Source: Schmidtea polychroa (taxonomy: Eukaryota). From it: a stretch of 64,000 bases of DNA. This document shows positions 21,901-64,000 of this stretch, piece by piece. Numbering within the stretch: the first letter of the stretch is position 1; every line of letters starts with the position of its first letter. The position numbers and the translations under genes are program-made. The stretch spans positions 44,950,001 to 45,014,000 of the forward strand of contig CM097886.1 of NCBI GenBank assembly GCA_044892525.1, given 5' to 3'. A model generated the notes under the pieces. That model was not told the DNA's origin, searched no databases, and worked only from the letters and a program-made list of their open reading frames with translations.

Positions 21901-24900
21901 CGACATAAAAATATGAAAAGAATATGTTATAAATTTCATTATGCGAACATAGGAATTGACAAAATATTCTTTTTAGTATAAAATCATCTCCCTACAACAC
22001 AACAGATTTTATTAAAAATGAAGCAAATAATAAAATATTATAATGTTTATAATATATTTATTTCATCGACTTTCATGCAAAAAATTACAATACAACTTTT
22101 CGTGATTTAATTGCAGCAAACTTGGTAATTCTAAAATAATTCTCGTGTATTATTTTCTTATTTATATAGTTTCAACAAGATACGAGTATACCTATATCAT
22201 CAAATGGAAAGAAATACAGGCATTGATTTTTTAATGAATTTAATATTAATTTAATATTTTAAACAAAAAACAAAAAATACATAAAATACAATACAATTAA
22301 TTATTTTTGCTCCCTATGGAAGAGCCGACCCTGCATACATATACTTATCCATTAATTTTGAATAATTATTTTATTATTTTTTATTATTTTATTAACTTAA
22401 TTTTTAGTTTTATTTTTAAAAAAATTTGGCTACAAATTCAGCAATATTTAGACACTCAATCATTCTGAGTCTATGTCAACCCATAAACACCTTAAGAAAA
22501 ACAATTGGTAAAAATTGTTCACATTTACACTAGAATGAAATGCTTGAAATGCCACAACCAATGTGTCTATATATAAATTTATAATTATTATATACATATT
22601 CAAATGACTATGGATAGGATTACTGAAGTATAAGATAGGTCTAAATCACACTGTCCGTAAAATTATTTTTTCTAGCCAATATTTTATAAAAAAAACTTTA
22701 CAAATCAGGTCAGTTAATATAGATGTACTAAGGTGGCACTGTACATATGTTCACTGAGTTTACTGGTTATACTAAGTTCATTGAGCTGTGACTGCAATCC
22801 ATCACACGGCATGTATGTAAGTAGTAGGATACCGTTTTAGCTACATTTGGACTTTTAAGGGAAAAAGTGATCGAACTGCTATTCACGAATACTAGACAAC
22901 TTACAGTACTTTAAAATTGTTTTAAAAAAATTATGGTCAGGATATAAAATTATAAATTTTCATTATGCTTATAATATTCATATTATATAACCAAGCAAAT
23001 TATAGAAATTTGAAAATGTTAATATTTTGGCAAAAATAGCAAAATACGGGGTGACGCAATTAAGAAATTGCTTTCCCTCTCGGACTCCCATGATTATGTA
23101 TCTATACATATATATATCATGTTTTATTTTCGCTTCAATTATGCGGATCTGACAGACTTTGGAGCGTATTTTTCGTCCGATCCCGTACATGGCATTTGGT
23201 TTTTGAAAGGTTAGAAAGAACTTGAAAAATTTTAAAGATTTGCTTGAACTTCCGGAACTTGCCACGTGAACATATAATAACTAAATATTGTTAGCACTAT
23301 TTTATTTGGACAGGTAATTTTGATTTTTTTCAAAAAATGTCAATCTAAAATGTCAAATACATACCAAATTCAGTTCTAATTGTATTGTTCAAAATTTCAT
23401 AAATTTCAGATTAAAAATTTTATTTTCTACTTTAAATTATTTGAACTATTATTTTATGAAATTTTTGTAGAAATATTTTGGAAAATTATAATTTATAAAT
23501 ATGTATTTTATTATTATAAGAACTTTTTTCAATTTTCACCACTGATTTCTTTTCAACTGCCTTTTCCATTGATTTTGATCAAAATCAATGGAAAAGGCAG
23601 TGTCGAAAATTCGTGAATAACAAAAAAAACATCGATATCTTTACTGATTCATAGTCAAGCTTTTTAGTAGATACAATGTATTTTATTAATTAAAAATTTC
23701 TGTGAATTTTGTCACTGGAAAACCACAAGAGCCACTCAGAAATTCAAATCTCTATAAATTTCATTATTAGTCCTTACAACAGACATAAGCTTTTAGAGGT
23801 ACTGCTTTTCAAATACAGTGTATATATTTTATACAATTGTGATATTCAATGGAAAACGAGAATCAACCATATGGTCTTCAAACTTCTAATGTTTCTATGA
23901 AACCACAAATCAAAAATATTCCACAGGCTAAATTTTGAAAATTTAAGAAGTGAGGATTGTTTGAAATTTACATTTTATCGTTTGACTCTCACTTTGCATG
24001 TTTATGACAAATGAATTTTTCTTAAAATATTGCCGCAAATGTTTTTATTCGACTCATTTCCCGCTGGAATCAACATGTAATTCCATTTGGAGCAATTGGA
24101 AGTATTTGTCTAAAATCTCATTCAAAAATTATAATTTTTCCTCTAAATGTGCATCAGTTTGAACATAAGTTTACATAAGTTTTACACATTTTTGGATTTG
24201 AAAAAAACCATTCCAAACATTTTACATAATTTTTTTAATTGGAAAAATAGCACAATGTAAAATATTTTGTTATAAAGTATTTGTTAAAAAGTACTTCGGA
24301 AAAAATATTAATAAATTGTCAGCTTATTGTAAACCAGTAATAGCCTCAATCAAAAACGTAACTTAAATATCCAAAGGATGTCAAAACCTCAAATATCATT
24401 ATAATGGTATCCATTAATTTGCAGGAAAGGAAGCCCATTGATTGAGATTCTGATTTTTTAAATTTTTTAAAATTTTATTTAAATTTAAATTTTACTATTT
24501 AATCTTAATTTTCTTTTTTGCTCTCTCTTTTAAAATTCAATATACAAAGAATAAATTTTCATGGCTTTGTGAATTTTCAAAAAATTATAGACCAACTTTG
24601 TTTTGAAATCAATCTGTGCCTGGATATTATACAATGAACGCCAAACTCTTTTATTGCGATCCCTCTCTATAAAACAACTTTTGAACCCCTTCAACAAAAA
24701 TAATCTTTACGATCATTTTCTTTTAAATAATATTTTATGTAATGTTTTAATTTTATTTTTTTTGTATTTTATTTATTTTACATATTTTTTGAATTACCTT
24801 CAATTTCATTAATTTTTATTGATTCATCTCTTTAATTTATTTTAGTCCAATTGCTTTTGTTCACTTTTGATGCTTTATTTTCATTTAACATTTCCAATTG

Positions 24901-26298
24901 TTTTATTATTATTTTGTTAATAGACTTATATACAATATTTGTAGGGAAGTACAGAAATAGGAATGTTATCCTTGGGCCCAAAACCACATTATATTATTTT
25001 TTAGATTTTCCAAACTTGACTTTGTATAAAACAATAAAGTGATAATTTAGGCCTTTTGCTGCGAATAATGTATTTAATGAAAAACTTTCGACTATAAGAT
25101 AGTTCTCTTTATATAATTGATAATAAATCATAGAGTGAAATGATATTCAAGAGAGAAAGAGTTCCGAAAAAACGAAAGTTTTAAGGAAAAAAAACAAAAT
25201 TTTAAAATTTTAGAATTTTTAAGTTCTTTTGGCATTCATTCGGTAACGAACATATTTTGTACAAGACGTTTTGTTTGAACTCTAATTAGGTATTCAAAGC
25301 AAAGTAATCTCGAATGCTGATATTTGAAGTAATTGTATTATATTATTTGGGATAATAATCTAATACTTTCGATAATAACAATAAATTACTTTTGTTTTTA
25401 TAAATATTATTTGTTAATTATATGAAAAATTAAATAAAAAATTAAAATCTTACCACTGCCACTCCATCATTAAGTAATGACTCTCCAAAGACCACATTAT
25501 ACACTAATTTATCGATATGCATAGCTTCAAACACAGAAAGCACGGCAACAGGGTCGACTGCACAAATTAGTATTGAGTATAAACCCGCATCAACTAAATC
25601 CATATCTAATTTAGAATATAGATTCCATCTCGATTTGCTTCCATAATAAAGAAGTGGCATTAGAATTGCAGCATTCAGGATTGTCCCGAAAATAGCGAAC
25701 CAGAGAATGGTTCCAATGTTGCGATAAAAAGTTAACTTGTCGGTCGCCCAACCAGCACCCATAACTATTGGAAAAAGAATTATATTGAAGAAAATCTTTG
25801 CACTCAAAGTTCCATCTAAAGTTACTCCCAATAATAGCATTGCGACAGCTGGGATAATTCCCGCAGTAATTAAAAATGCACTTTCTGGAAATATTTTCCC
25901 AGGAGAAGTTCGATGAGTTAGGCAGACAGTGCGACACAAGGATCGTTTCACCACACTAAAATTTGTGGTGAATTTACAATTTTTATAGCATGCTAAACAA
26001 CAATAATTGAACTCTTTTTCTGATACTAAATATATTTAAAATTAATATAATATGAACTCATTTTATATTTTTTTATACCCAATTTTATGAACACAAAAAG
26101 AATGACAAAAGCTGCTCCTAAAATATAAACTTTGTGATCGTCAATATGAACAAATTCAAATGGATTGTATAAGCCATTTCCACTAGAATTCTCAGTTGAA
26201 TGGGCAACGCTTCTTTTAATCCTCAGAATCTGATTCGCATAAATATTGTTGATTGTAATAAATAAAAAAATTAATAATGCTAAGTATTTAAGTGACAT
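18924..26298 (-). CDS. SLC9A: Na+/H+ exchanger (SLC9A/NHE, CPA1 family), ~881 aa; exons 26298-26079, 25992-25454 (alternative acceptor start 26025), 20908-20655, 20609-19201, 19147-18924
   Basis: Signal peptide plus conserved motifs FPES, AVDPVAVL, FGESLLNDGVAVV, SGIL, SEGIVFILMG, HGGLRGAIGFAL and GATIKPLV. All GT-AG junctions preserve frame (total 2646 nt). Confidence 0.92.
23540..23680. mobile_element. Family A foldback element in NHE intron 2, with a perfect 46-bp palindrome core (23556-23601)
   Basis: ACTGCCTTTTCCATTGATTTTGATCAAAATCAATGGAAAAGGCAGT is its own reverse complement. It is followed by the family A arm GAAAATTCGTGAA..CATCGATATCTTTACTGATTCATAG. Confidence 0.75.
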
Positions 26299-43290: not shown

Positions 43291-45813
43291 CACTAGGACG
43301 GCCAGAGCGGTCATTTTGACCGTTAAGCAATTTCATTTTTATTTTGTGAGAAAACGAAAAGGAATTAACGTCTCATATTTTGTGACAATTATTCATTTTT
43401 AGTGAACTTGTTGTGCATATCAAAGCTTCAATTATAGCATTTGTCACGACTGACATAATGAGGCCATCCCCATGGAAGGCCGAACCGGTCAATTTGACCG
43501 GTATCTTGAAACACACAAGAAAGTCACACATAATCATCTTACATACTAGAAAATATAAAACCAAATATAATTTACACACAACCGAAGCATTTAACAGTCA
43601 TTTGGGAATGTTTTCCACAGTAAACTTTACTACATACATGGCATATAGCTCCGGATTTGTTATCACAATGAGGAGCAGTACAAGTTTTTCGCTTCTTTAA
43701 TTTTGGTTGTTCAGAACAGAGTTCACCAGAGATGGGACTTGCTGTTCGACGGCTTTTGAACTCCTCACAAAGAGATGTAGCTAATTCAAAAATAAAATCC
43801 CTTCTTTTTATAGTTGATCCCGTAGCATCTTTGAAAATAACATGAGCGTTGAGAGCTGCTTTATCAAGCAAATCATAGAAAGTAGCGACTGGCCATCTTG
43901 CTGTTGCGGCTTTACTGCTGTATAAACGCAACATGCTATCCGTGGTATCTACAGCTGTCTTATTTTTGTTATAAAAGTGTATCATTTCAGGCTTTCTCTT
44001 TTCGTCAGATCTCACACTAGCAGTAGAATGGAATGTTGACATGACAATGACTTTCTTGTCCGATTTGCCTTGATAGGAAACAGTGACAGTGTTTTGACAC
44101 GATAAATGAGTCGATTCAAAAGAGGCTTTTTCTCCAAGTGAGCTAATGATAAAAAGCGTGAATTTAATTTTACAGTACCAACCAATGTTGTTCGATTTAC
44201 AAGGAGATGTTCAGCTAGTGAGAGACTTGTAAAGAAATTGTCAGTGCAGACATTGTATCCTTTATTGAAAAATGGCTCCATTAGTTTCCTGACTACAAAA
44301 TCACCCAGCCGTAATCCACAGCGTTCGTTTCTATCGTGAGCCCCTAAATATGGCATTTGATTGATGACAAATTTGGTTTTGACATCACTGAGAATCCAGT
44401 ATTTGATACCGAATTTATCAGGCTTATTTGGCATAAATTGGATGAAGCAACACCTATTTTTTAGCGGCAAAAGTTGCTCGTCGACAGTAAGGAAGGGATT
44501 AGGAGTATAAACTTGAAGACAGTTTGAAACAAAAGTCAAATATTTCACGAAAATGGGCATATTTATCTTGTTCTACTCTTTGACGTCGAGAACATTGTTC
44601 ATCAAAACGAAGAAAGCGCAGTATCTCACGGAAACGGTTCCGAGACATGACTTCTCTGAAGTAAGGAGATCCAAATTGAGATGACCAGATTGAATTGATA
44701 GAATGTCGGCGAAAGCCTAACACACCACGGAGATACAGCAATCCAAGAAAAGCATCTAATTCTTGTAGACTGATACACCAGTCTGACGAAGCTTCTTTTC
44801 CTTTCATAATTGTGTATTTTTGAATTAACTTCAGCATTCCCTCAGAGACTATCAAGCGCCAAGCGCTCAGGGGTGAGTCAATTTTGCGCTTTGCAAAAGC
44901 TTTCACACCAGGTGTTCCACTAAAAATATTGTGCGCAGGGAATCTGCCAACACTAATAGCGTGATTGTTTTCTACTCGATTCCAAAGAGTGCCATTCCTG
45001 CTAGATAAAAGCTGATTTTCTAATGAAGAAATTGAGCTATTGACTGACTCATTGTCACTTTCTAACGAACTTCCATTATCATCAGAGTTCCATTCATGTA
45101 ACTCTTCGTCAGAATCATTTCTTTCGGGCTCATCATCACTTCCCATAGGCTGATCTTCATCTTCGGAGAGAGCAGCGTCAATATTCCATAGCTTCTGTAA
45201 AGCACGTTGAGCAGCAATTCTTTTAGTTGGCATATTTGATTCTAAAATAATGATAAAAACTCCGTCAGTAAAATAAGAAACGTCAAATTTATTATTGGAT
45301 TCTAATGAAAACACGGTTTTATAATGTTTGTTATCCCAAGAAGTTCAAAGATTTTCTATAATAATTATTAGATATTTTCTTATGACATTTCGTTAAGTTT
45401 TTCGTTTGATTCTTTTAATTTACCAAATTTCAAAACTTAGAACTCTTAATGCTTGCTTAATTACACTTTTAATAAGCACTATCTTTGAATAAAAGCAAGA
45501 GAATATTTATAAACAAGAAATGAAGTATACATACATACCAGTCTGAATAAACGCGAAGACAATGTTTAAAATAGTGTAGCTTTGTGTCAGCTAAACAAAT
45601 ATTTTTATTTCATTGTTGTAAGTAGTTTAATAAATTAACTACTGTTAGAATAAAAATAGTTAAATTTTGAAAGCGTGTTAGTAGCACAAAGAAAGTATTG
45701 CTGAATGAGTTGCATCATAGAAATCTCAGCATGAAAATAAGGAGCATATGTGCACCGGTCAAATTGACCGGTTTGGCCTTCCAAGGTATAAAATATTTCC
45801 GGCCGTCCTAGTG
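43291..45813 (-). mobile_element. piggyBac transposon (PGBD4-like), complete ends, frameshifted transposase
   Basis: TTAA|CACTAGGACGGCC .. GGCCGTCCTAGTG|TTAA. The transposase from ATG 45233 is split over ORFs 44499-45314, 44012-44560 and 43572-44042, with TVDEQL, TDNFFTS, VDTTD and a C-terminal Cys-rich domain. Confidence 0.95.
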
Positions 45814-48784: not shown

Positions 48785-49656
48785 ACACATTTCTGTAACT
48801 ATAGAATTGGTGAGTCTTAGGTAACCCACATCTTACCCGTTCGTGTCGTTTGCGACGAAACCCAAGATACAATAACTTTTTTAACCATCCGACACCCGTT
48901 GAGCGATCAACGTTGGTGATGTGTCGCATGGGTAAATACTCGCGAGAAGTCAGTGTACATCTGTATTTTTATAATCACCGAGCATTCCAATGGGTTCATG
49001 GACTGCCAATAGAAATTCTGTGCAAGACTTTGGTTAGGTCCCTTTATGTCATGTTACAATGACGCGAACCTGGCTGATGGCTTGTCCCTCATGCTATGAT
49101 GTGAGACGGCGTTACCCAGCTGGAAAATCTTTCACAAATGCATTTGGATTGGAAGTGAAAATGAACTACATACAAGTTTATTAATGTATAAGGACAACAC
49201 TAAAGTGACTATCAGATATGTAAATCAAGAAAAGTTGAGTGTCCAGGGATTCGAACTAAATTGATAACTAAGTACTAAACGAAAGAATCGTATATTAATT
49301 TCGATTAAAAGTCAGAAATTTTGATCCTTCTGTTGGGCTGAGCCGAAGGGTAGCTGGGAGATTAGGTCAAATGTACTAAAGTAAAATAAAGAAATAAAAT
49401 AAACAAAGTTACGAACAAAATAGAATAGAACATAAGAAAAACAATAATTAGAAAATAGGAATTAAAACAAAAAAATATAAAAATAAGAAAAATTAAAATA
49501 GGACAATAGAATGACGAAAAATAACGTAAAATATATTAGATAATAAGGAAATTAAGGAAAATAAATAAAAACATAATTTTAATAAAGAAAATAGGAAGAA
49601 ATAACCCAAAAACAAGGAAAATAAATTAAATTAATAAAATAAGGCGGTATTCAATT

Positions 49657-49693
49657 CTGATTGGTCCGCGTAAATAGAAAACTAATATATAAG
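49657..49693 (+). promoter_or_regulatory. LTR promoter: inverted CCAAT/Y-box (CTGATTGGTC) and TATA box (TATATAAG, 49686)
   Basis: Consensus motifs just after an A-rich U3-like tract, followed by an ATG-free ~185-nt stretch ending at the donor G|GTAAGG (49892). Confidence 0.5.
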
Positions 49694-51962
49694 CAGACAT
49701 TAAAATCATTATAATTACCGTTAATTCAACAACTACTATAGAACTAGCGATTCACAGCAACAGACACTGACTTACAGGATCATCACAAGGACTATTCCAA
49801 GACTCAAGAAACTTCATCTAAATCTATATTCGATTCTAGTATTAATTAATTCTACTTAGTACTTTTCGACTCAGCCTATTTGAAACACTCGGTAAGGATT
49901 TTTGGATTTCTTATTTTGAATTTATAAGTAATGGTATAATCTAATTATAATTTAAATTTAAAGATCTTACCTTTTCTTTTCGTTTGATTTCAAGCATGTT
50001 ATTTAATTTAATGATATGGTTATTTAATAATAAATGATTTACTTTCTAGGAATTATTGATTTTCCTTTGATGAATTATTTTTATGAGTTATTATTATGTT
50101 AATTAAATTTTTGAGGAACGTGGCGTTGAGATACTCTATGTCATGGTGTGAGGTGCCTTCGGGAGCTCCACCGGTGGACATAGGGTATTTGAATCACGCA
50201 GCTAGATTGGGCCGAAATGTGAGGGCTTCTTCACGGGTCCAATCGCTGAAGGTGCGACCAAAATCTATAGGCAAATTGTGGCAGAAAATTGATAGTCAGA
50301 TAGTGATTGAAAACAAAGATATGTAATAAATGAATCGGAGGATTCTTAGGTATTCGCGCAGTGATTGAGGGCGTCACACCATCGTCTCCAGATATCGTTT
50401 CCACTAAGCCAAATTTTCTCTATCATCGATGTAAGTTGTGTGTCAAACAATCGTTCGGACATTAGTGGGGCTATATGTGATATATCTTCGATGTTCATGC
50501 TTGCGCTCGGAACCTATTCCTACAAATTTTCGGCCTATGACCTTTTGAACTGTTATTTCTTTCATCTAAAAGTTCTCTTGAAGACATAGTCGCAAGGAAG
50601 CTCAAAGTAGATTGCTTCAGATAATTATTAGGATTATTCAAAATGACTGTTTACGAATAGATTGTAGAACCACGTAAAATGATTTATTTCAGATAATTAT
50701 TAGAATTTCATAAAACGAGTTTGTTCCAAATAAAATTTTTAATTACATAAAATAATTTACTTCAATTAATTTTTTAGAATTATATAAAAATATTTACTTC
50801 AACCAATTTTCATAATTACATAAATGATTGGCATCAAATAATTCGAAATGAAAAATGCAACTAAGTCGAGCCAAGAAAAATATGTATATTTTTTTTTAGT
50901 TAGCCTGATGAGTCTTGTTACTTAAATGTAAAATTCCCGTATTTCATGAAGTTGGAAATCCAGCGGGATAGGTAGAAAATCTCCAGAATTTCAGGAACAG
51001 ATCGATAAATCGCATTTGAGAGGTTAAAAAGAAATCCACCCTTGGAGCAAATTATATCCAACATTTACGACATAGAGAATCGTAATTTCTTCCAATGTTT
51101 CCGTGAGAATTATTAGGCCATCAGCAGGTGCAGGGGAATTGTGAGCAATTACGCAGTAGATAGTAACCAGAGAATATGCCAGCATGCAAACATTGAAGAA
51201 CCTCCATTAGTAGTTACGAGTAGAGATAAGTGTGTGAAGTCGCAACTCGCATGCGTCACACATGTTCAAACACACTATAGCAGCCAATCGCAGGGTGTAA
51301 AGTTACACTAACCTTTACTCATAGAAAATCAGGCCGAACGTGTCAGATGGAGTTTTCCGTTATCTAATTAAACCACTGACCGGCATTAGATTTCATCGCT
51401 CGGGATGGATAGTCAACCATCAGGCTGATATTTTGCTTATCTACTTAGTAGGATTTGCTCTGCTACTTTCTCACATCGATACAATTTTCCGTTATCACAA
51501 ATAAATAATCAAAAAATTAAATAACTTTCCGTTCATCATAAACGAACTATTTAAAGGAAATTATGGACCTCCCTTTACCGTAAGTACTTAATCGACCCCG
51601 GTACATGATACACGCATCGAAATCACTCATTTGGGGGGAAAAATCAACAATTTCACTCGATTCTCTGCAAACGTGAATTAGTGACTTCAAGCGGATTAAA
51701 TAAATAATAATTTTCATCGACCGAGAATTTCTCTCACTAGTGGTAATGTCTCCCTTTCCTTGTGCGAAATCTGGCTTGATCGATTTATCTTCTTATAATT
51801 AAAGACCCAAAAGGTATGAGGATCCATCGTGCAGTAGAATCTTGTTGACCGGTAAACCCATAATTTTGTCTATGATCAGTAGAGTATGAGTGTGGTCAGA
51901 TGGCGACACTCTCGTTGTTTTAATCTATTTTCATTTTTCATTTTTCTTCACAGTCACTCAAA

Positions 51963-52706
51963 ATGTTGCCCAATTCCACAACCATTCTCAGACCTTGTTT
52001 TTCTTGCTCCGACAAGAATTCGATCATCAAAGATCTCCAGGCCCAAATCGGGAAGTATAAAAGAAAAATAGATGAGTTAGAGGGGACATGGTTTAGTCCC
52101 ACCCGGATGAAGGAGGCTCAGAAGAAGCTGCACCGAAGCGAGCACTGTCGAGACGCGTTAATTTCGGAGAGTCGGGCGCAGAGGAGCCTAATAAAAGAGC
52201 AGTCGGAGGCGCTACACAAATTATACGTCCAGGCAGCAACTACAAGGAAGATCGCGAAGATCCCAATTAATGAAGCCAGTAATCTTTTCCCAGCACATCA
52301 TGATATCTCTGGCGGGTCTTCATCTCCAGTCGGAAAGTCCTGCCATGGGTGCGTGGAGACCGAGCTCTCTCCCAGAAGTCAAGACGTCGTATTCACCGGA
52401 ACTAGTAAGGTACCGTCAAGCACCGCATCTTCCTCAAGAGTGCAAATACCGACCGCTTCAAAACCTAAACGTCGGCAATTGTCACGCGCCGAACGAAAAC
52501 GAAAGCAACGCGAGCGGGCTTCCGTCAAACAGATTTTACCATCAATCGCCACCCCAGTCGAGGGCAGCAGTAATTCAGCAGTCGTCGATCTAACAACCGG
52601 AATCTCAGGGCGAGTCATCTCCGCTACCGGGGTGTCATGGGAAGAAAATGCCGCCGAATTCTTCGATTTAAACGAGTTACTCGCCGACTCGGAGTGGGAA
52701 AAATGA
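51963..52706 (+). CDS. LTR-encoded 247-aa protein: CxxC + coiled coil, basic NLS-like tract, acidic-aromatic C-terminus (transactivator-like)
   Basis: Acceptor TTTTTCTTCACAG ends 10 nt before the ATG; KPKRRQLSRAERKRKQRER; WEENAAEFFDLNELLADSEWEK; AATAAA at 52842. A homolog exists at 4620-5268. Confidence 0.75.
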   Translation: MLPNSTTILRPCFSCSDKNSIIKDLQAQIGKYKRKIDELEGTWFSPTRMKEAQKKLHRSEHCRDALISESRAQRSLIKEQSEALHKLYVQAATTRKIAKIPINEASNLFPAHHDISGGSSSPVGKSCHGCVETELSPRSQDVVFTGTSKVPSSTASSSRVQIPTASKPKRRQLSRAERKRKQRERASVKQILPSIATPVEGSSNSAVVDLTTGISGRVISATGVSWEENAAEFFDLNELLADSEWEK

Positions 52707-52841
52707 GAACTTCCCCGTAAAATGGCTTCATCCTCTAGAGGGACTTGAACATCTACTGATAACATTTTCTATCTTTGTGTTTCCTTGTTCTTGTAAATTG
52801 GGTGGTATAAGTTTGTAATATATGTGTATAAAAATTCTCAC

Positions 52842-52900
52842 AATAAACCATTTTTGTCTGCATACGTTTTTTTTGTGTTTATTTTAAGACAGTTGATTCG
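52842..52900 (+). terminator. Polyadenylation signal in the LTR (candidate R/U5 boundary)
   Basis: AATAAA at 52842-52847 followed by a T/GT-rich downstream element. Confidence 0.5.
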
Positions 52901-53276
52901 AAATTGGTAAATAGCATTGAGAGTCGCAAAAAATTAGGAGCATTAGTCAATTGGCAATCCCAGTTAGAAACATGGCGATTGGTGACGGGATAAAAGACGT
53001 AAGTCCTTCTATCGGCAGTCAGGGTTAGGAAGTCGAGGCCTCAGTAAGGAGTAGTCCGAAGGAGATGGCTCACCTGCTTACTGGCGTCTCGCCGACATAG
53101 CACAGTTCCAACGTGAAGCGATTCACGGGTGCTATGTTGGAGTATAGGTTATGTACGGGCCCTGCTCAGCGATGACCGGGATAAAGACGAGTGTAATTGA
53201 TGGGGGCATTCATCCTCTAGACTAAAAATGGTACTAAAGAAGGTCATCCGAGTAGCTACCCGCCAACATAATTTTA

Positions 53277-53294: not shown

Positions 53295-53601
53295 CTAGAT
53301 TGAAATTTCCATTGACTAGTGCGAACTTGACTGGGATTTATTATTGAAATTTTGTCGAATAGTGTGAATTCACCGGGATTAGTGATTTTAATTGACTGGC
53401 GAATGCAAATTGACTAATGCTTATCGAGTCTTATTATAAAATCACGAGTAGAAAATAATAAAATTAATGATATAAATAAAGTAACTTTAATAATGGAGAA
53501 ATAAGACAAAAGTAAAATAAATTATAACGATTTAAAAGGAGAATGTTTGATGAAACAACCACTAATTAGTTATATATTACTGAAACATTTTTTATATAGA
53601 C

Positions 53602-54087
53602 ATGACGAAATTCGGGGACCAGATACAACAATTAATCAACTTCATAAATATCGAGAATGACTCCCTTAAAACGCTGACACAAAAGAGAGAAAGAATTAAC
53701 ATCATACTACTCCAATCAATCGGACAAACACCAGTCGTCCCCAACCACATGTTATTAGCCACAGGACTAAGTCACCCAGATGGGAAGGTAAACCCGGAAA
53801 CCGTGTATCAATGGTATCAAGAGAGATTGAACCACCCAGCATTAAATCTTGATTATCAACGTATAAAAGACCCCTTAAATACCATATCAGATACAATCGA
53901 GCGGAAAATACAAGAAAAACTGACTCTACTACGAACTTGTTTTGCTTGTAAACTTCGTCCTATTCGCGTACTGTTTTTGCCGTGTGGACACCTCAGTCAC
54001 TGCGAAGAATGTGTGAACGATTTAAAACGATGTACGGTATGTAGGCATGAGATAAAAGAAACTCATATGGTTTATTATGGTGAATAA
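53602..54087 (+). CDS. 161-aa protein with a C-terminal IAP/MIB/MYLIP-type C3HC4 RING (putative E3 ligase), inside the retroelement leader
   Basis: CFAC-x11-CGH-x3-CEEC-x6-CTVCR..I..THMVYYGE. Acceptor TTTTTTATATAG is 2 nt before the ATG; AATAAA signals at ~54084, ~54147 and ~54205. No BIR motif. Confidence 0.88.
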   Translation: MTKFGDQIQQLINFINIENDSLKTLTQKRERINIILLQSIGQTPVVPNHMLLATGLSHPDGKVNPETVYQWYQERLNHPALNLDYQRIKDPLNTISDTIERKIQEKLTLLRTCFACKLRPIRVLFLPCGHLSHCEECVNDLKRCTVCRHEIKETHMVYYGE

Positions 54088-54799: not shown

Positions 54800-56169
54800 G
54801 TAAAGGCCTAGAAAAGCGAGAGATAGCAGTTAAGCTACAATGAGCTAATATCTGAATTAATAGAGAAAGGGAATATTAAAGCTAGCTAGAAACAAATTGA
54901 ATGTAATTACGAAAATTGGAGTTTAGAGAGGAAATAAACGAGCTCGTGGAAAAGATAATAAGATTATAATGAAAAAGGAAAGGGAAGAAGGAAACGAATT
55001 AAAGAGATAATGGAAAATAAAGAATAGGCGAAACGATGATAATGAGTAAAGAGGAAAGTAACCAACTAATTAAAGGGATCCCAGTGAAGTAGAGAAACTC
55101 TACGGAATATTTTTTTTTTGGTTAAACCGGGAAAATGCATTTTATTGGTTCCAGAGTAGAACCGAGTGGAATAATAGTAAATATGAAAAGTAAAATAGCG
55201 ACAACAGCGCAAAAGGATTAGGAAAATGAAAGGGGGGTAATAAGCAGTGACCGACAACGACCTATTCATATTATAAGTGATAAAAATAGATAATTATTGC
55301 GACTCTATAGATAATTGTTACTACCCCATATAGATAATTTAAAATCGACGAAAAATTCGGGCTGATGGGAGATTATAACCCGCGGAAGTAATTGCATAAA
55401 AAATAGGGGAAGCATAAACAGAACCTAAAAGGTGTCTGTGTTTGAATGTTGCAGAAAGAATGATGAAGTCGTGTAAGCAGATGCAACACGAGATCATTTT
55501 TTCATTTTAGATATCAAACCAATCCAGTCAACCAAGACAATCCAGAACCTGCACAAAAGGAATTCGAAGAAATCGACAATCGACCAAGAATAAATCCATT
55601 CAGAACCCGCACCGAGAGACACAGCAACCGGAAGACTCCAGAACGGAAGAAGATACAGATAGCGACATCTCCAACTTCGAACGAATCATCGATATATTCA
55701 ACCTCATAGTATTAGCAGCCATCTGTCAAGGACTAGTAAATCTCCTCAGAATCCCAGTAGCAGATTCATACAGAATACTTATCGAAGGAAACACAATCAG
55801 AACCGAACTCGTCCAATTCAGTAGCCGCTAATTACCAAGAAGCGTAAGAAAGGAATCACGGATAAACCCAATCTTAGATCTTCAAGTAAGCCAGGAGACG
55901 TATTATTTTCAGGAGACGAATTACAACAACTCAAAAGAGGACGATCTATTAAACATCAAAGAGGAATATCACAAGGATCAAGAAGAACCAATCAAGTACC
56001 TATATTTGACCAAGAAAATCTCGGATACACCCCTAGTCGATCTCGAAGCAGAGAAAGTCTGTCCGACATCACTAATAGTTTAGCAACGTCAACCGAGGAA
56101 TTATCAGCCCAAAGTTTAGTCACATCGTTAGACAATTTGAAAGAAACAGACGAATCTAGAACACCAATC

Positions 56170-57594
56170 ATGACGAATGTCGTAAAAACCGACGAGTATA
56201 AAGAGAAGTTCAGAGGAGAACCGTTCAACGGAAATGCAAACAAGTTAGCAACGTTCATAACCAACTTCGAAGTTTATATCGATGTGTGCGGATGGACATC
56301 CGAAGCAGTTAGTAAAAGGATGCCGTTGTTTTTGTGCGATAGCGCATTAGAAGTGTATTTAGAGGCTAAAGAAAGAAATACGAAATTAGATAAATGGGAC
56401 GATATCAAAACATTCCTGAAGAAAACTTTCGGAGCTAGCAAACCAATAAATCAAGCACTCGGCGAACTAGCAAATAGGAAACAAAGAGCAAATGAATCCA
56501 TTACGTTATATGCCAGCGAATTGCGGAGATTGGCAAAGAAAGCAATGAATGGGAAATTACCAGAAGAAAATTTGATCGGTTATTTCATAGAGGGATTACG
56601 CCGAGAAGAAGTAAGAGCATCTGTAGGCTGTCAGATGTGTACAACGTTAGAAGAGGCCATAGATTGGGCTACGAGGTGCGAACTCCACCTCCCAGCACAA
56701 ATGAACATCATGCAAGAGGATGGGAGGATAGCGACAGCCAAAGTAAAAACGGATAATGGAGATAATAACAACCAGGAACCAAAAATGAATCAATTCATAC
56801 CAGGAGCGCATCAAATTTTTAAACCACCACAAGGACGATCAAATGGGAATAATGGTAATCGTAACAACCTGAATAATGAGAACAATTTTAATAATTGACG
56901 AAATATGAACGATAACAAGCAGTGCCGAACATGCGGTAAACCAGGACACTGGGACAGAGATTGCTATAGAAATTCAAATTGTAATCGTTGCGGACGGCGT
57001 GGACATACCGAAAATGTATGCCAATTGCGAGGTTGTTTTAACTGTGGTCAGCCAGGTCACATCTCCAGAGATTGCCGAGAAAGGGGTCAACAACAACGAC
57101 CACCACAGCGAAATAATAATTATATGGCGAATCCGCAACGACAAAGTAACCCTAGCGAAGGAAACCAAATGAACGTTATGCAGGAAATCTCGCAGATGAA
57201 ACAGATGATGCAACAAATGATGAGACCAAGACCAGAATCAGCACCACAACAAACCCAGAATATACGTATGATGAGGAGTACCGAAAATCTCAACAATTAT
57301 GAAGTACATCAACATGTACAAGAATGGCAAAGACTGCAGGCCGAGGAAGAGAGGATAAAACAAGAACGCAACCAACAACGCCAAGAACAACCATTGCGAA
57401 TAAATATGATGAAGTTAGTAAAAGACCTGAAAAGCCAGTATTGCTACAATTACGGGAAAAACCCAAGGGTAGTACCCATGACGGAACCAGAAAAGGTAAA
57501 AGAAACAACAACGGAAATGAAAACAGAATTCAACCACGATTTTAAAAGGAAACCAGAGAATTCAGAAAATATTCTGGAAAAAGATAAAAGATAA
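56170..57594 (+). CDS. gag: Gag: capsid (56170-56898) and nucleocapsid with three CX2CX4HX4C knuckles (56923-~57077), interrupted by one in-frame TGA at 56896
   Basis: PFNGNANKLATFITNFE..W..F..KQRANESITLYASELRRLA..FIEGL; CRTCGKPGHWDRDC, CNRCGRRGHTENVC and CFNCGQPGHISRDC. Both parts are in frame 1. Confidence 0.9.
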
Positions 57595-58360
57595 AATAGA
57601 AAAGAAACATGAAGAAACGGAAATAAGAATAAAAGAGGGAAACAACCAAAACAAGGAGCAAATCAGTCAGTTAAACCACCAAATGCTACAAGAATCGGAA
57701 TCAGAAGAAACAACGATATTCGAAAATAGAAAACTAAAGAGAGTACCTAGGATGAGAAATTTGCGAATCAACATGATGAAAAGGACAAAAGGTACGTCGT
57801 CCTCAGACGAAGACTATGTGAGCAGTTTGGGTGGAGAAATACTACAGCTAAACGAAATAAGCGAACCTCCGAAAGGGGAAATCAAAGAGGAAGAAAGCGA
57901 AAGCGAGATAACCAGTGGAAGTGAAGACGAGGATATCGAAATAAAGTTGAGAAAAGCAAGGGAGGAAGCGATAAAACAGGTAGCCGAAATACTCCCGGTG
58001 GTAGTGAGAAACCAAGAGTTCATCGATGTAATACCATTCAGGCGATTCGTACAAAAAGTGATGAAATTGGAAGGAAACGAGAAAGATTTAATACCAAACG
58101 AGGAAAAATCAATTATAAAAAAGTATATGGAAAAAATGAAGCAGGCCGATACCACGCGGTATGTAATAAAAATCAGAACGAGCAGAGGACTTGAAAGAAT
58201 GTGGATCAAAAGTACAGTCACCGACGAACTTTTCGATTGGATACGAGAACATTTGGGAAGTTCGAGAAAGAAAGAATATCTGTATCAATACCAAGGAGAA
58301 CAGATCAAACCAGATATGCACTTAGTGGGAAATGTAGTGATGGTATGGTGGATGATGTAG
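57521..58360 (+). CDS. Polyprotein segment in frame 2 (acidic region + ubiquitin-like C-terminus), linking gag to the long frame
   Basis: Open from 57521 to the TAG at 58358. Repeats the LRINMMK heptapeptide of the upstream frame. Ends YVIKIRTSRGLERMWIKSTVTDELFDWIREHL..YQYQGEQIKPDMHL. Confidence 0.7.
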   Translation, partial: KQNSTTILKGNQRIQKIFWKKIKDKIEKKHEETEIRIKEGNNQNKEQISQLNHQMLQESESEETTIFENRKLKRVPRMRNLRINMMKRTKGTSSSDEDYVSSLGGEILQLNEISEPPKGEIKEEESESEITSGSEDEDIEIKLRKAREEAIKQVAEILPVVVRNQEFIDVIPFRRFVQKVMKLEGNEKDLIPNEEKSIIKKYMEKMKQADTTRYVIKIRTSRGLERMWIKSTVTDELFDWIREHLGSSRKKEYLYQYQGEQIKPDMHLVGNVVMVWWMM

Positions 58361-61300
58361 TCATGATGTACGATAAAATAATATTACGAGCGGAAGACGA
58401 CACCTCGTTAAGCGAAATGGGTATGTGGGACAATCATCAGATAATCAGGATAGTACCAATGGATGAATTTCGAACAAGAGATATAACATATCAAAAAGAA
58501 ATACGAGACCGGATGAAAACGTTATATCAAAAATCTACAGAAATAATTGAAATCCACCAACAATGGTTAAAAGAAAAGGAACTACAAGGAAAAATCACGA
58601 AACTAAGTACCAGATCCTGCAGACGGACCCCATGGGAAAGAGTGTGGAATGCAGAAAATAAGGAATGGGAAATCCGGAAAGGAATCTTCGTAGAAACAGA
58701 CATTGGTGAGACAGAAAGTGAATCGGAGGAAGAAGAAGAGGAACCTCCAGAATATGAAGAGGAAGGAAGGGGACAGACATCAGATGACGAAAGCGAGACG
58801 GATGTCACATCAGAAAGCGAAAATGAAGCGAGACACATTCATGCAATGAGGAAAAAGGAACGTGAATATGCTGATATGGACGGCGAGGAAGCGACGGAAG
58901 CAAGAGAACGAGAAGAGAGAGAAAGATATAAACAATTAGGCGATATCCTAATAAAGGGAGCGAAGAATCAAAAACGACAAGTAATAACATTAGCTAACTT
59001 CATTTTAAAAATATCGGATAATATCCATTATCTGAGGGAGATAGTAAAAACTATAGAAGAATACCGACAATACAACGAATGGTACCCGGAACAACTGGAG
59101 CAAATTATCGGGAAGTGGCGAAACCATGAGTGGTCACAAGATACCCAAGAGAGATACCGAATCCGAATCAAATACCCAGATAAGAATGTTGAGGAAGTAG
59201 AAGTACACCCAACCATCAAAATCAGGGAATTAAAAAAGAAATTGGCATACGAAACTCCTTTCCATCTACAACTGCAAGGAAAATCACTAGACGATAATGC
59301 AGACGTCGGAATAACACCCATGAGATTGGAAGAGACAAATGTATTAACGATGGCAGAAACGTTGGGGAAACCATTAAAAAGGAAAAGTAAAAGTGACAAA
59401 CCGACAAAAGGCAGTTTGAGTACTCCAAGTCCGAACAAAGCCCCAAGTAAATCTAATGAAACTGAAGAAGTTGAAGAGATTATCCTCGAAGATAGTGACG
59501 ATGAACCAGGAGAAAGATCACCGCTATTAGTAAGATGGCCGACAGGAGCCGAAATGTGGACTAATAACCAGCCATCAACGAGTTATCAACAACCAACGAA
59601 ACTAAACATCAAAGAAATCATCGACAATACTACGGAAACCGAAACGGACGAACAATTCCTGAAGCAAAGAGAACCAACGAAAATAACACCAGAAGGTCAA
59701 ACGGATAAAATAATAGATGAATGGAACGAGTGGCTGAGAAATAACGATAGTTCATTACCCAGAACGGATAACGAAAGAAATCCGAATTACGAAAATACCA
59801 GAGAAGCCGGAACGATGATGGAAAAACGGGCAAAAGGAAGGCCTAAGAAACAAGGAGGAAAGTCTGAGTTCAAAACCAAGGAACAATTAAAGCAAGAACA
59901 AGGGCAAGTTCGATTGGAAAAATTGGATAAAATAGTATGGGATCTAAAGGAAGCCCAACCAACGGTTGAAAGAGGAGAAAAATGGATACGAGAATTGATA
60001 AAAGATATGTTAATAATAACAAACCCACAACTTAGACGCTTGTGGCAACGGAAAGTAGCGAGTGTGGAAGCTAGACAGTTATGGCACACCGTTTCGGGGA
60101 TAATCCCAAAGTTAATCAAAGAGAAAACGAAAACCACCAAAACGGATTGGGATGAAACGAAGAGAGTGATTGAACAGCTCACGACAAATGCAAATGATGA
60201 CGAACATCATCTAGTGGTAATCACTTATTTGACGTATAATTTGATGGGATTAGCGGCAAGAAAAATACCGAATAAACAGTTTGCAAATCACGTGGAAATG
60301 ACCGTTTCAATCATAGAGAATACTATTGAACCACATATTATTCGTGCCGGAGGATGGAAAAGACTTATACAAGCGCCACGAAAAAATGAGCAAGAAAGGT
60401 CGATGCAAGTTAGGTTGAAGAAGTTGTTGAATGAACTAGAATGGGAACTACCCATGAAAGACCCAGCAAGCCGAAAAGCATCGATAAATTCGTTAATGAT
60501 GACTATGATGATATGGATGTTGTGCACAAGTGGAGCAACGGGTTTTACCATCTACGATTGTGATAATATGATAATGAGAGATAAATACTCATTGAGAGAC
60601 ATAGAAGAATGCAGACAAGCATCACCCAACAAATTAGACATAGTAAGAACAAAAGTTACTTACCATGTATACCAAGAATCAGATTTCATTAGAACGCAAG
60701 CAAGGGAATGCGTGGTATCAAAAAAGGTACTCGCATATTACTGTGGACAATATTCGTATTCGACTCTTATACTACCCGGTCTGGATAAAGAAATCGTATC
60801 AATACAACGAGAGGACTGTAAAGAGCTATTTAGAACCGGAGCGCTAAAAATGCATAACGGAGTGACGATTCACGGACAAACTGGAATGATTAAAACCGAA
60901 AGCGTTTACGTATCCGGAAAAGTAAAATCATCAGATGGGTCATGTAACGGAGGTACGTATACGATCCGAGGCGAGGTAATATCGGGAGTAGTAGTAATCG
61001 AGTCCTATACGGTTGAACTAAAGGAATACGAAGCGCAATTTGACGCAAATAATTACCAAATGAAGACCAACCCAGCGTGTAGAGCTACAGAAAACGTATG
61101 CAGGACAGGAGTATCAACTATAATCTATGAAGCTAATACCCAAAAATGCCGACTCCAACTGTTAAAAAGTGCTTTGTTCAATGAAGTAAAAGGAGAAATT
61201 TATGAGAACGAGAACGACGAGGATGGAAACGACAGAGTGAGAATGCGAAATGGAAAACCAATGCCACCATCTCCCAGAGAAAAAAGACTCTCAACGCAGA

Positions 61301-64000
61301 AAACACCAACAGCGTTAATTACCGACGATCCAGATCTAGGTATGAGATTTATCAAAGAAAAAGAAACCACCAAATGCGACAGTATAGTATATAAAACCAA
61401 TTACGCTGGTATCTATATGTCGAGACAAATAATCGATAGAGCAGTGGGAAAGATAGCAACGGAGGACGTAAAACTATACTTATATGCAAATAATAAAATG
61501 GATTTTCTATTTCATCGTGGACAAACGACCTTGCAAAAAGTATATTACGATCTGATACAAAACGATTGTTCATTGAATAAAGAAATACTGAAAACAAAGC
61601 TAGCTATTGCGATAACACACCCAGATAACACGATGCCATCACTCCCATTACCAGATGGACATTTTGGTAGAATGGTAGGAGAAGTGATGTACACATACCA
61701 GTGTACCAAGACGTATGCACGAATGCCAGAAAAATCCATACTACCCGAAAAGAGATGTGCAAACGAATTAGAAATCCGTTATAAAGGACAAAATCGATTC
61801 GTCCAACCAGTCACGAGAATTATGAATCCAGTGGGTTTCTACCCAAATCTCTTTAACTGTTCTAATGCATACGGACCTTTGTATGAAAGACCCGATGGCA
61901 AATGGATGATGTTACCGGGAAAAACCATATCCGAGGAGCCCAAGAAATATGGATTAATAGAACTCGCCACAGAGCTGGATTTCAAACCTATAGACGTGTC
62001 AAACGGTGGTATGTATTCCCCAGAAGATCTAGAAACAGCACGACTTAACGTACTCTTCCCAGCCAGACGAGAATCCATTTTGTCAAATATGGTTACAATA
62101 ACTGGGGGAACAAATTATCAATCAGGCCCGAATTACGAACTGCTATTATCGCCAGACCATTTTCAACAAGCTACGTCAAACATGATGAAAGCCATGTGGG
62201 GAAGATTTTTAGTTTTTGGACAAATGATGGCCGGAATATTGGGGATCATACTCATAATTCAGATAGTCAGAGTAATACTAACACAAATGTTAGCTTGTTT
62301 TGATATATACAAGCGAGAAAAGAAAGTAAATTGGAAAATGATAGTAGGCTTTCTACCATTCCTAGCTAAAACCATGGTGTTACATGGTCACTCAAAGGAC
62401 ATTCACCGAATAAAACGATTAATTAAAATATTAACAAAGATTAAAGGAACCGACGAAGAAGTAGGCAGACGATTCCGGAAAGTAATGTACGATGAAGCAA
62501 CAAGACGACAATTGAAAAAGAATAAGCCAAAATTTTTGGACCGATTTAGAAGTCAATCATCTAACAGCAATAGTGACGACGATGATAACGGGAACGATAA
62601 ATGTATATATCCAAACAGAAACCCAAACGAAAAACCAATGGAAACAGCACCATATTGGGAGAAGGAAAAGACAAACACCTGGATCGCCAATGGAAGCTAT
62701 ATACCGCCAGATATCGTGGGACCACAAGCAGCTTTGACCATGACACAAAATATGTATCCGCAATTACCGAGTCAACCAGGTATGCATTATATGCCAACAC
62801 GACGTACCAAAAGTGTAGATCAAGCAGATGACGTAAGAACAATAGCAGCGATGAGTCTACCTGGAGGTCCAGCAGTAACAGTTATGATTCAAATCAATGG
62901 TAAAGAAACCAATGCTATGATAGACACCGGAGCTAATGTATCAGCGATAGCGATTAATCAAATTCCCAGTAAGCACTGGAAGGATATCGAATCAACAACA
63001 ATCCACATCATAGCATGTAGTAAAGAAACAGTAGACGTGGTCGGAAGATGGTGGACTACATTGAGATACCAGGACAACGAAATTGAAACGTATTTGGCAG
63101 TAATACCAAAACTTAGCGTACCATGCATAATCGGAACGGATCTGATGCCAGAATTATTAAAAGAAGTGGTAATAGACTTAACAACCATGTGTCTAAAGGA
63201 CAAAACCGGTAGAATATGCAAAATGAATGCAGTAATCAGATGTCCAGAAAAAATAATAGTACCAGCGAAATCGCAGATGATTTGTCAGATAAAGGTGGAT
63301 ACGGGTATGGAAGGAGAAGTTATCTTTGAACCAAGCAAGTCATTCGAAAAGCGACGAGAGTTACCACTCGCAAGGGAAATAATCACAATAAACCAAGAAG
63401 GAGTGATACCGCTCAACATCACGAATTTCGAAGAGGAAGACAAAATCATTTATGAGAACGAAAAATTGGGAAGATTGACCCCAATGATGGACATAGAATT
63501 ACCGAAAGTGACCAACGAGATGATCAAAGATGATGAATTATGGACAATAGATAGTATGTTGTTGACGAATGATGAAAAGAAAAAATTGCACCGATTGTTG
63601 GTAGAATATAAAGATATATTCGCCATCTCAGATTTAGATTTGGGTACATGCGATGTTACCCTACATGCAATACCACTCATAGATGAAACTCCAATTGCAC
63701 TAAGACCATACAAGCTAGCAGAAATGCAAAAAGAAATAGCCGAAGCAGAAGTACAAAAGATGCTAGACGCAAAAGTAATCGAACCGAGTTGCTCACCCTG
63801 GCAATTCCCAGTGGTCATGGTAAAAAAGAAAGATGGCACCCAACGATTCTGTATCGATTATCGGAAGTTAAACGCAGTAACCAAGAGAGATACCTATCCA
63901 TTGCCGGACATCAATGAGATGTTATTGATATTGCAAGGGGCAGCATATTTTACTTCTTTAGATCTAAAAAGTGGATACTGGCAGATTAAAGTCAAAGATG
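58195..64000 (+). CDS. pol: Long polyprotein frame (~1935 codons, no stop in window): Ubl domains, Bcl-2-like domain, signal peptide, Env-like glycoprotein, protease, RT (partial)
   Basis: Frame 1 was translated by hand from after TGA 58192-58194 to the window end with no stop; first ATG is at 58345. It is absent from the supplied ORF track, presumably because it lacks a stop. Confidence 0.92.
59980..60372 (+). other. Bcl-2-fold-like domain within the polyprotein
   Basis: RELIKDML ~ Bcl-xL BH4 RELVVDFL; KRVIEQL ~ EQVVNEL; a hydrophobic alpha5 LVVITYLTYNLMGL; IEPHIIRAGGW ~ BH2 LEPWIQENGGW. The NWGR motif is not conserved. Confidence 0.6.
60484..62385 (+). other. env: Chuvirus-like / class III (gB-type) envelope glycoprotein domain with internal signal peptide and TM
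   Basis: Hydrophobic SLMMTMMIWMLCTSGATG then FTIYDC, YYCGQYS, GEVMYTYQC, CANELEIRYKGQNRFVQPVTRI, GGMYSPEDL, LFPARRESIL and TM WGRFLVFGQMMAGILGIILIIQIV. REKR at 61276. Confidence 0.85.
62854..63200 (+). other. Retropepsin aspartic protease domain
   Basis: INGKETNAMIDTGANVSAI (DTG at 62923) and CIIGTDL. Confidence 0.92.
63560..64000 (+). other. Reverse transcriptase N-terminal part (Gypsy type)
   Basis: PIALRPY..EVQKMLDAKVIEPSCSPWQFPVVMVKKKDGTQRFCIDYRKLNAVTKRDTYPLP..SLDLKSGYWQI. Confidence 0.95.

Follow-up and report, generated by a model that had tools for sequence, protein, structure and literature searches.

Introduction

The Burro and GYPSM1 elements are giant gypsy-like long terminal repeat (LTR) retroelements of planarians. 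Burro elements rank with the largest retrotransposons of animals, and loss of PIWI lifts their repression (PMC8532177). A single ubiquitin/SUMO-like motif has been reported in them (Arkhipova and Yushenova 2019, PMC6431247; citing Grohme 2018 and Jurka 2007). Here we address a stretch of 64,000 nucleotides from Schmidtea polychroa (assembly GCA_044892525.1, contig CM097886.1, forward strand positions 44,950,001 to 45,014,000), hereafter called the window, the final 15 kb of which are taken up by a retroelement. The interval under study lies inside this retroelement, a decayed copy of a high-copy giant gypsy element of the Burro type. In the intact frame, three ubiquitin-like (Ubl) domains (U1, U2 and U3), each behind a helical segment (H1, H2 and H3), follow the zinc knuckles of Gag and precede a Bcl-2-like domain.

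The window's family shares with Burro/GYPSM1 the giant frame, a gag with three CCHC knuckles, a Ubl, a Bcl-2-like domain, an envelope gene (env) between gag and pol, the order of protease, reverse transcriptase, ribonuclease H and integrase, the ankyrin repeats, and a cargo of RING and TRAF/MATH domains. It differs in two respects. The published text has one Ubl motif (PMC6431247), whereas the window's family has three, each behind its helical segment; and its TRAF gene is a separate downstream open reading frame (ORF), outside the polyprotein. The window element is placed among the Burro elements by layout. Since one Ubl motif is already in print, the feature is less new than a preliminary description of this DNA implied. 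The observation is real but largely known; what appears new is the presence of three Ubls, the repetition of the helix and Ubl unit, its variation from one to three copies, and the selection upon it. We found no description of any of these, nor of a function, in the literature, on which the figures and supplements of PMC6431247 and PMC13524379 may bear.

Other described systems are also close. The GAG-ENV-POL errantiviruses of Platyhelminthes with an HSV/gB-type env (PMC13524379) likewise have env between gag and pol, a chuvirus-like glycoprotein and young insertions in multiple copies; ubiquitin, UBL, SUMO and Bcl are not mentioned in the main text of that paper, supplements aside. Integral, non-conjugated Ubls (those of BAG1, Dsk2, Ddi2, USP11, UHRF1 and parkin, all obtained as structural matches) also present a beta-grasp within a larger protein and without a modifier tail, but no Ubl subclass is favoured for the domains of the element, and no sequence relative was found outside the genome. 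The ubiquitin, SUMO and LC3 inserts of pestiviruses are likewise Ubls in a viral-type polyprotein. Those inserts are cell-derived (PMC12908451), whereas the Ubls of the element share 12-22% identity with ubiquitin and have no Gly-Gly.

Three ubiquitin-like domains and a deletion in the window copy

Two or three Ubl domains had been proposed for this interval, and the related copies settle the number at three. At 15 of 19 related loci, three complete Ubl-like segments are read through in one frame; of the other four, two are interrupted by a stop in U3, one shifts frame after U2 and one lacks a match to U1. Copies of U2 at 96% identity or more number at least 150 (150 scored of 639 candidates), many of them in open frames of 4,732 or ~4,811 residues.

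The window copy carries a deletion here. In 25 of the 26 related copies measured, 469 extra bases are present at window position ~58327-58334, the remaining copy (L008) being without a clear call. In a DNA search of the genome, with 40 of 343 candidates scored, all 39 candidates other than the window have an aligned piece that begins at query position 331-372, and in most of them another piece stops near 327. The junction occurs once in the 781 Mb genome. Contigs of four public runs have loose ends on both sides of the junction and none is listed as joining across it; an assembly error in the window copy may be the source of the junction.

Because of this deletion, two pieces that had been described as separate Ubl parts are the head of U1 and the tail of U2, not the halves of one domain. 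The beta-grasp pattern assigned to frame 2 at 58151-58357 does start at 58151 as the U1 head, but its last ten codons (58328-58357) are an out-of-frame read past the junction. The Ubl C-terminal half placed at 58360-58458 is present as the U2 tail, although it reads 58363-58464, three bases later. The ubiquitin-like peptide given at 59155-59352 is in place and corresponds to U3, which starts at 59149-59155 within a long open frame (58195-63999) that runs past the window end. A programmed frameshift at 58330-58360 was also considered, and was ruled out by the extra 469 bases and single frame of the related copies and by the genome-unique junction. The two-frame appearance of the window reflects a deletion in one copy and no recoding event, and the window copy itself is unable to make the Ubl accessory proteins discussed below. 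Separately, a short Trp-rich motif lies behind U2 (58630-58700) and is also found in family D (33% identity over 45 residues, including the preceding helix).

Searches of the genome with env, Bcl-2 and MATH profiles gave four further env-bearing families (B to E) with the same domain order as the window's family (A, with a subfamily A'), each carrying one to three Ubl domains. Family D has frames of 4,791 residues with three Ubls and a MATH domain between U2 and the helical segment before U3; with MATH inside the polyprotein, it is Burro1-like, and the published single Ubl motif sits at the place of its U3. Between families D and A, identity over the aligned parts is 48% for U1, 41% for U2 and 46% for U3. 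Families B and C have two Ubls each and family E has one. In all families, every Ubl is preceded by a helical segment of ~70-95 residues. A tree of 13 units gave good support for within-position pairs only and left the order of duplication unsettled. A variant of family E (L051:5799-9500) has a repeat-expanded Gag, and its frame behind the Bcl-2-like domain does not read as env.

Evidence for the fold

A ubiquitin-like fold is supported for U1, U2 and U3. When a pooled profile of 14 natural segments was compared with the PDB, the best 60 matches were almost solely ubiquitin, ISG15 and ubiquitin-derived chains (best single-stretch E 9.9e-9). U3 has profile similarity above chance, with PF00240 at E 0.003-0.005. 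A profile built from families B, C and E only scores U3 at 7.2-8.0 bits in A and A' but at only 1.9 bits in D, the highest of 200 shuffles scoring 4.6. With a leave-one-out profile without any U3, the U3 of a related copy reaches 15.2 bits, and the best shuffle 8.6. Additionally, H3 and U3 together align by hhalign to the helix and Ubl units of B, C and E over 140 columns, with a probability of 87.8%.

For U1 and U2 the structure check that the preliminary description had suggested yields predicted beta-grasps. An AlphaFold model of U1-H2-U2 from a related copy (9-row alignment) has two of them, with a mean predicted local distance difference test (pLDDT) score of 62, mostly 60-85 in the two domains and below 50 in part of H2. 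Foldseek places ISG15 and di-ubiquitin at the top (E 1e-7). In VIA, the U1 model reaches Z 10.2 (root-mean-square deviation (rmsd) 2.0 over 69 residues) and the U2 model Z 10.1 (rmsd 1.9-2.4 over 72-75 residues); the tied matches include BAG1, ISG15, SUMO, FAT10, UBX and Dsk2, and favour no Ubl subclass. The modelled topology, beta-beta-alpha-beta-beta-beta, is that of solved Ubls, in a model whose alignment leaned toward the fold. A single-sequence model of the whole U1-U3 region (pLDDT 39.6) has no more than a strand-strand-helix start at each of the three places.

Several results weigh against this reading. The U1-H2-U2 model is not fully independent, because its alignment included clearer Ubls. 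U1 and U2 do not rise above shuffles in leave-one-out profiles, and they score weakly (0.5% and 13.7%) when their profiles are aligned to those of other families. The Pfam cut-offs are not reached: PF00240 weakly matches 6 of 14 segments (best E 0.0023) and PF11976 (Rad60-SLD) 3 of 14 (best E 0.0046), and the best score among the 14 members is 20.1 bits against a cut-off of 25.4. U3 was modelled at low confidence only. Its single-sequence evidence is weak, since U3 of the window alone matches PF00240 below the curated cut-off (E 0.0047) and its best PDB sequence matches, all ubiquitin variants, have E 0.18-0.24; U3 is supported by the profiles. Finally, H1 and H2 can hardly be aligned to the remaining helical segments.

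H1-H3 have no family match. As TFIIS N-terminal or CID domains, they gave no signal above reversed controls with shallow profiles, and the matches of PF08711 and PF04818 include no element copies; profile comparison gives this resemblance no support. A cluster of at least 12 near-identical ORFs with an IWS1/Med26 domain (340-520 residues) was seen at G000 C2:164-172.5 Mb and on C31. Outside the genome, no relative was found at E 0.01 among 6,763 and 715 candidates. The lone match among 1.84 billion representatives is by inspection a PAS/GGDEF/EAL-like protein and was judged a chance match. An ESM Atlas look-up gave scores of at most 0.80 throughout, with Ubl clusters as leads only, and an expression look-up listed no RNA dataset as holding the element sequence.

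Selection, tails and surfaces

Conservation across copies, proposed earlier as a check, is strong. The selection test compared one A frame with four A' frames, which are close kin, so that it is in effect one comparison. The proportion of synonymous differences is 0.46-0.71, near saturation, yet U1, U2 and U3 are 90-95% identical. The ratio of nonsynonymous to synonymous change (dN/dS) is 0.028-0.044 in U1, 0.010-0.013 in U2 and 0.034-0.041 in U3, as compared with 0.014 in the capsid, ~0.02 in the protease, 0.036 in env and 0.08-0.19 in the acidic linkers. All three Ubls are under strong purifying selection, as constrained as the capsid and protease. This bears on a purely structural role, in which small stable folds would serve as spacers or solubility aids in a polyprotein of 4,700 residues. 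The variation in Ubl number by family and the widely different surfaces of the units fit such a role, but whole-domain selection near that of capsid and protease, and the 41-48% identity kept per unit between A and D, go beyond what would be expected of a spacer, and we regard it as quite improbable.

The absence of a terminal Gly-Gly, as first described, holds for every segment: none of the 13 has one at the ubiquitin tail position, and a single Gly-Gly lies in the linker beyond U2 of family D. We hold it very probable that the domains have the Ubl fold and are integral parts of the protein, not cut at their ends. Pestivirus Ubl inserts retain a cleavable C-terminal glycine. Processing by a host protease in the manner of the pestivirus ubiquitin, SUMO and LC3 inserts, which the preliminary description had brought up, is the least likely of the alternatives and very improbable, because Gly-Gly is absent and a different motif, marking the likely cuts of the element's own protease, flanks the modules. 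The Ubls are indeed embedded in a viral-type polyprotein, and a single Gly behind U3 in families A and D leaves a slim opening, an ATG4- or UFSP-like cut being conceivable after a single Gly. The other units have no such Gly, and identity to ubiquitin is only 9-17 of 76 residues. Moreover, the pestivirus inserts were gained by recombination from the cell (PMC12908451), whereas the Burro Ubls are old and diverged.

The pestivirus-like case of this genome is a BEL/Pao-like family with ubiquitin, not the Burro cargo. In this unrelated family, a near-authentic ubiquitin stands directly before a DUF1759 Gag (L034:2550-6008(-), L035:2467-6513(-), L036:3174-7358(+) and L039:3163-4632(+)). The ubiquitin of L035 matches PF00240 at E 1.8e-57, and L035 and L036 carry two units ending in Gly-Gly.

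For the surfaces, a near-authentic ubiquitin from the same genome was aligned to the 13 segments, in an alignment of uncertain register. At the position of Ile44 there is Gln in three U3 units (the window, A and D), Lys or Thr in three, Tyr in six and Ile in one. The Leu8-Ile44-Val70 patch appears to be gone in U3, and position 44 is hydrophobic in U2, C2 and E, the U2 residue in A and D being Tyr, or Met by hand register. These data weaken the proposal of a ubiquitin/SUMO decoy or a proteasome/p97 shuttle, under which ubiquitin receptors, SUMO-interacting motifs or p97 cofactors would be the targets that the domains compete for or dock on. SUMO, Dsk2, Ddi2, UBX and BAG1 do occur among the tied structural matches, and U2 keeps its hydrophobic residue. 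A decoy is expected to retain the surface that it mimics, however, and here few positions remain as in ubiquitin, the patch appears lost in U3, and no subclass is prominent in the structural search; we consider this role rather unlikely.

Putative release from the polyprotein and proposed role

A repeated motif flanks the U1-U2 module on both sides in families A and D. It also occurs at the end of the protease, at the ribonuclease H/integrase and integrase/ankyrin borders and after the knuckles, and in A' at both capsid ends. It is likely a cleavage site of the element's aspartic protease, judging by its placement in the sequence. There are 6 matches per frame in A, 8 in A' and 5 in D, against shuffle means of 0.8-1.0. 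Some points argue the other way: the maxima in 300 shuffles (6 in A, 5 in A' and 6 in D) reach or pass the observed counts in A and D, no match occurs in the frames of B, C or E, and one match lies within H2. Since the motif was defined after seeing the sequence, the evidence is its placement and not its count.

Cuts by the element protease at ~57770 and ~58845, together with signal-peptidase cleavage near 60544, would release two accessory proteins. The first would be a soluble H1-U1-H2-U2-PPxY protein, with the TRAF/MATH domain added in family D; the second, H3-U3-Bcl-2-like, would be anchored in the membrane by a tail that would at the same time serve env as its signal peptide. The Ubls may then offer docking sites, away from the Ile44 patch, to partners in the ubiquitin and cell-death machinery, be they of the host or of the element. 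Their company consists of a RING ORF, a TRAF-type ligase ORF and the Bcl-2-like domain and, in family D, the MATH domain that separates U2 from H3-U3. The preliminary description had also named the element's RING as a candidate partner, and the RING ORF is confirmed. On balance we lean, by a little, towards the Ubls being integral docking surfaces of two accessory proteins released by the element's own protease; it counts against this that the docking role is argued from position and company. In all five families the Bcl-2-like domain is followed by a hydrophobic helix (60484-60543 in the window) that immediately precedes env; it may be both tail anchor and signal peptide.

The leading alternative is a budding signal built into the polyprotein. 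As parts of a Gag precursor that is still uncleaved and anchored in the membrane, the Ubls and PPxY would mimic attached ubiquitin and a late domain, and recruit the endosomal sorting complexes required for transport (ESCRT) for the release of enveloped particles. The Ubls do lie between nucleocapsid and predicted membrane anchor, and at least one is present in each of the five env-bearing families examined, a co-occurrence that is not independent as the families share ancestry. PPxY, kept in 19 of 20 loci (L001-L020) and in A', is of the late-domain type that binds Nedd4-like ligases (PMC3751857), and a ubiquitin fusion is able to replace a late domain, per the title of a reference in the same paper. 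The motif is, however, absent from families B, C and E, and the sole match in D falls inside the MATH domain. ESCRT ubiquitin-binding domains require the Ile44 patch, and in 6 of 13 segments, U3 among them, a polar residue occupies the Ile44 position, with Ile kept in a single segment. Such a signal appears unlikely. Nor do we give much credence to the related idea of a Burro-type "pre-ubiquitinated" Gag, in which an amplified helix and Ubl unit (one to three copies) would recruit host budding or extraction machinery without conjugation; if true, such a Gag would provide both targeting to the membrane and release to a virus whose gag, env and pol share one frame.

Organization of the element and neighbouring features

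The gene order in one frame is gag, cargo, Bcl-2-like, env and pol, the layout of planarian Burro elements (Table 1), and beyond the window the frame continues through reverse transcriptase, ribonuclease H, integrase and ankyrin repeats. The Burro features are present: a single frame of ~4,800 residues with env between gag and pol (related copies, 4,732 and ~4,811 residues); Bcl-2-like, ankyrin, RING and TRAF/MATH cargo, with the Bcl-2 match below cut-off; and long LTRs with a total length near 30 kb, as measured in a related copy. That copy has an LTR pair of 3.85 kb at 99.97% identity and an element span of ~29 kb. In the window copy, the 3' repeat (L057:582-1973), found 10-12 kb beyond the window end, is partial and aligns at 95.5% to 1.4 kb of the 5' LTR (49331-50684). 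With its own LTR match merely 1.4 kb long and at 95.5%, against 99.97% in the other copy, the window copy is older and decayed; its decay marks are the stop in gag, a frame change near 57521-57594, and the 469-base deletion.

Table 1. Features of the Burro-type element in the window (positions within the 64,000-nucleotide stretch)
Feature	Position	Strand	Basis and remarks
5' LTR	49331..53260	+	ends approximate; end projected from the LTR pair of another copy
RING-finger accessory ORF	53584..54087	+	between LTR and gag; PF13920 E 6.8e-12; another copy has a corresponding ORF
gag, capsid and three CCHC knuckles	55825..57080	+	PF03732 E 6.8e-12; PF00098 E 1.3e-11; in-frame stop 56896-56898
Probable cleavage site of the element's protease, before first Ubl module	57761..57778	+	repeated motif (at 57764); inferred
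Helical segment H1, ahead of U1	57944..58150	+	alignment of 15 such segments; no family match
U1, ubiquitin-fold domain, 5' part; tail lost in window copy	58151..58327	+	related copy predicted to fold as beta-grasp
Junction of 469-base deletion	58327..58334	+	window copy only; shifts frame; comparison with related copies
U2, ubiquitin-fold domain, 3' part; head lost in window copy	58334..58464	+	related copy predicted to fold as beta-grasp
PPxY motif in acidic linker	58744..58755	+	between U2 and H3; 19/20 loci and subfamily A'
Probable cleavage site of the element's protease, between the Ubl modules	58834..58851	+	repeated motif; counterpart in family D
Helical segment H3, ahead of U3	58921..59130	+	H3+U3 aligns to helix and Ubl units of families B, C, E
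U3, complete compact Ubl domain	59149..59367	+	no Gly-Gly; PF00240 E 0.0047; leave-one-out profile
Bcl-2-like domain	59908..60370	+	PF00452 E 0.044 in window (below cut-off), 3.8e-5 in family C
Hydrophobic helix; probable membrane anchor and signal peptide of env	60484..60543	+	sequence; role inferred
env, viral fusion glycoprotein	60544..62320	+	PF24664 E 5.5e-70; in frame, before protease
Aspartic protease and start of reverse transcriptase	62878..63999	+	PF00077 E 1.5e-9; PF00078; frame continues beyond window

Other ORFs accompany the element. One of 260 codons lies within the LTR (51924-52706) and is open in both LTRs of another copy, with weak coiled-coil matches only. The TRAF-type ligase ORF (RING, zinc fingers, coiled coil and MATH; L021:6097-7527) is an accessory gene of the window element situated 6-7.5 kb beyond the end of the window, and two coiled-coil ORFs come after it. 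Elsewhere in the window are a fragmented piggyBac-like transposase (43572-45344, minus strand, PF13843) and exons of a host sodium/hydrogen exchanger gene (19166-26035, minus strand, PF00999).

Meaning for Burro elements

The cargo of Burro elements had previously been listed, and no functional test of it was found in the literature. The present analysis narrows the options for its Ubl part: there are three Ubls, they are constrained like the capsid and the protease, and they are not cleavage signals of the modifier type. In the intact element, they are likely split over two separable accessory proteins.

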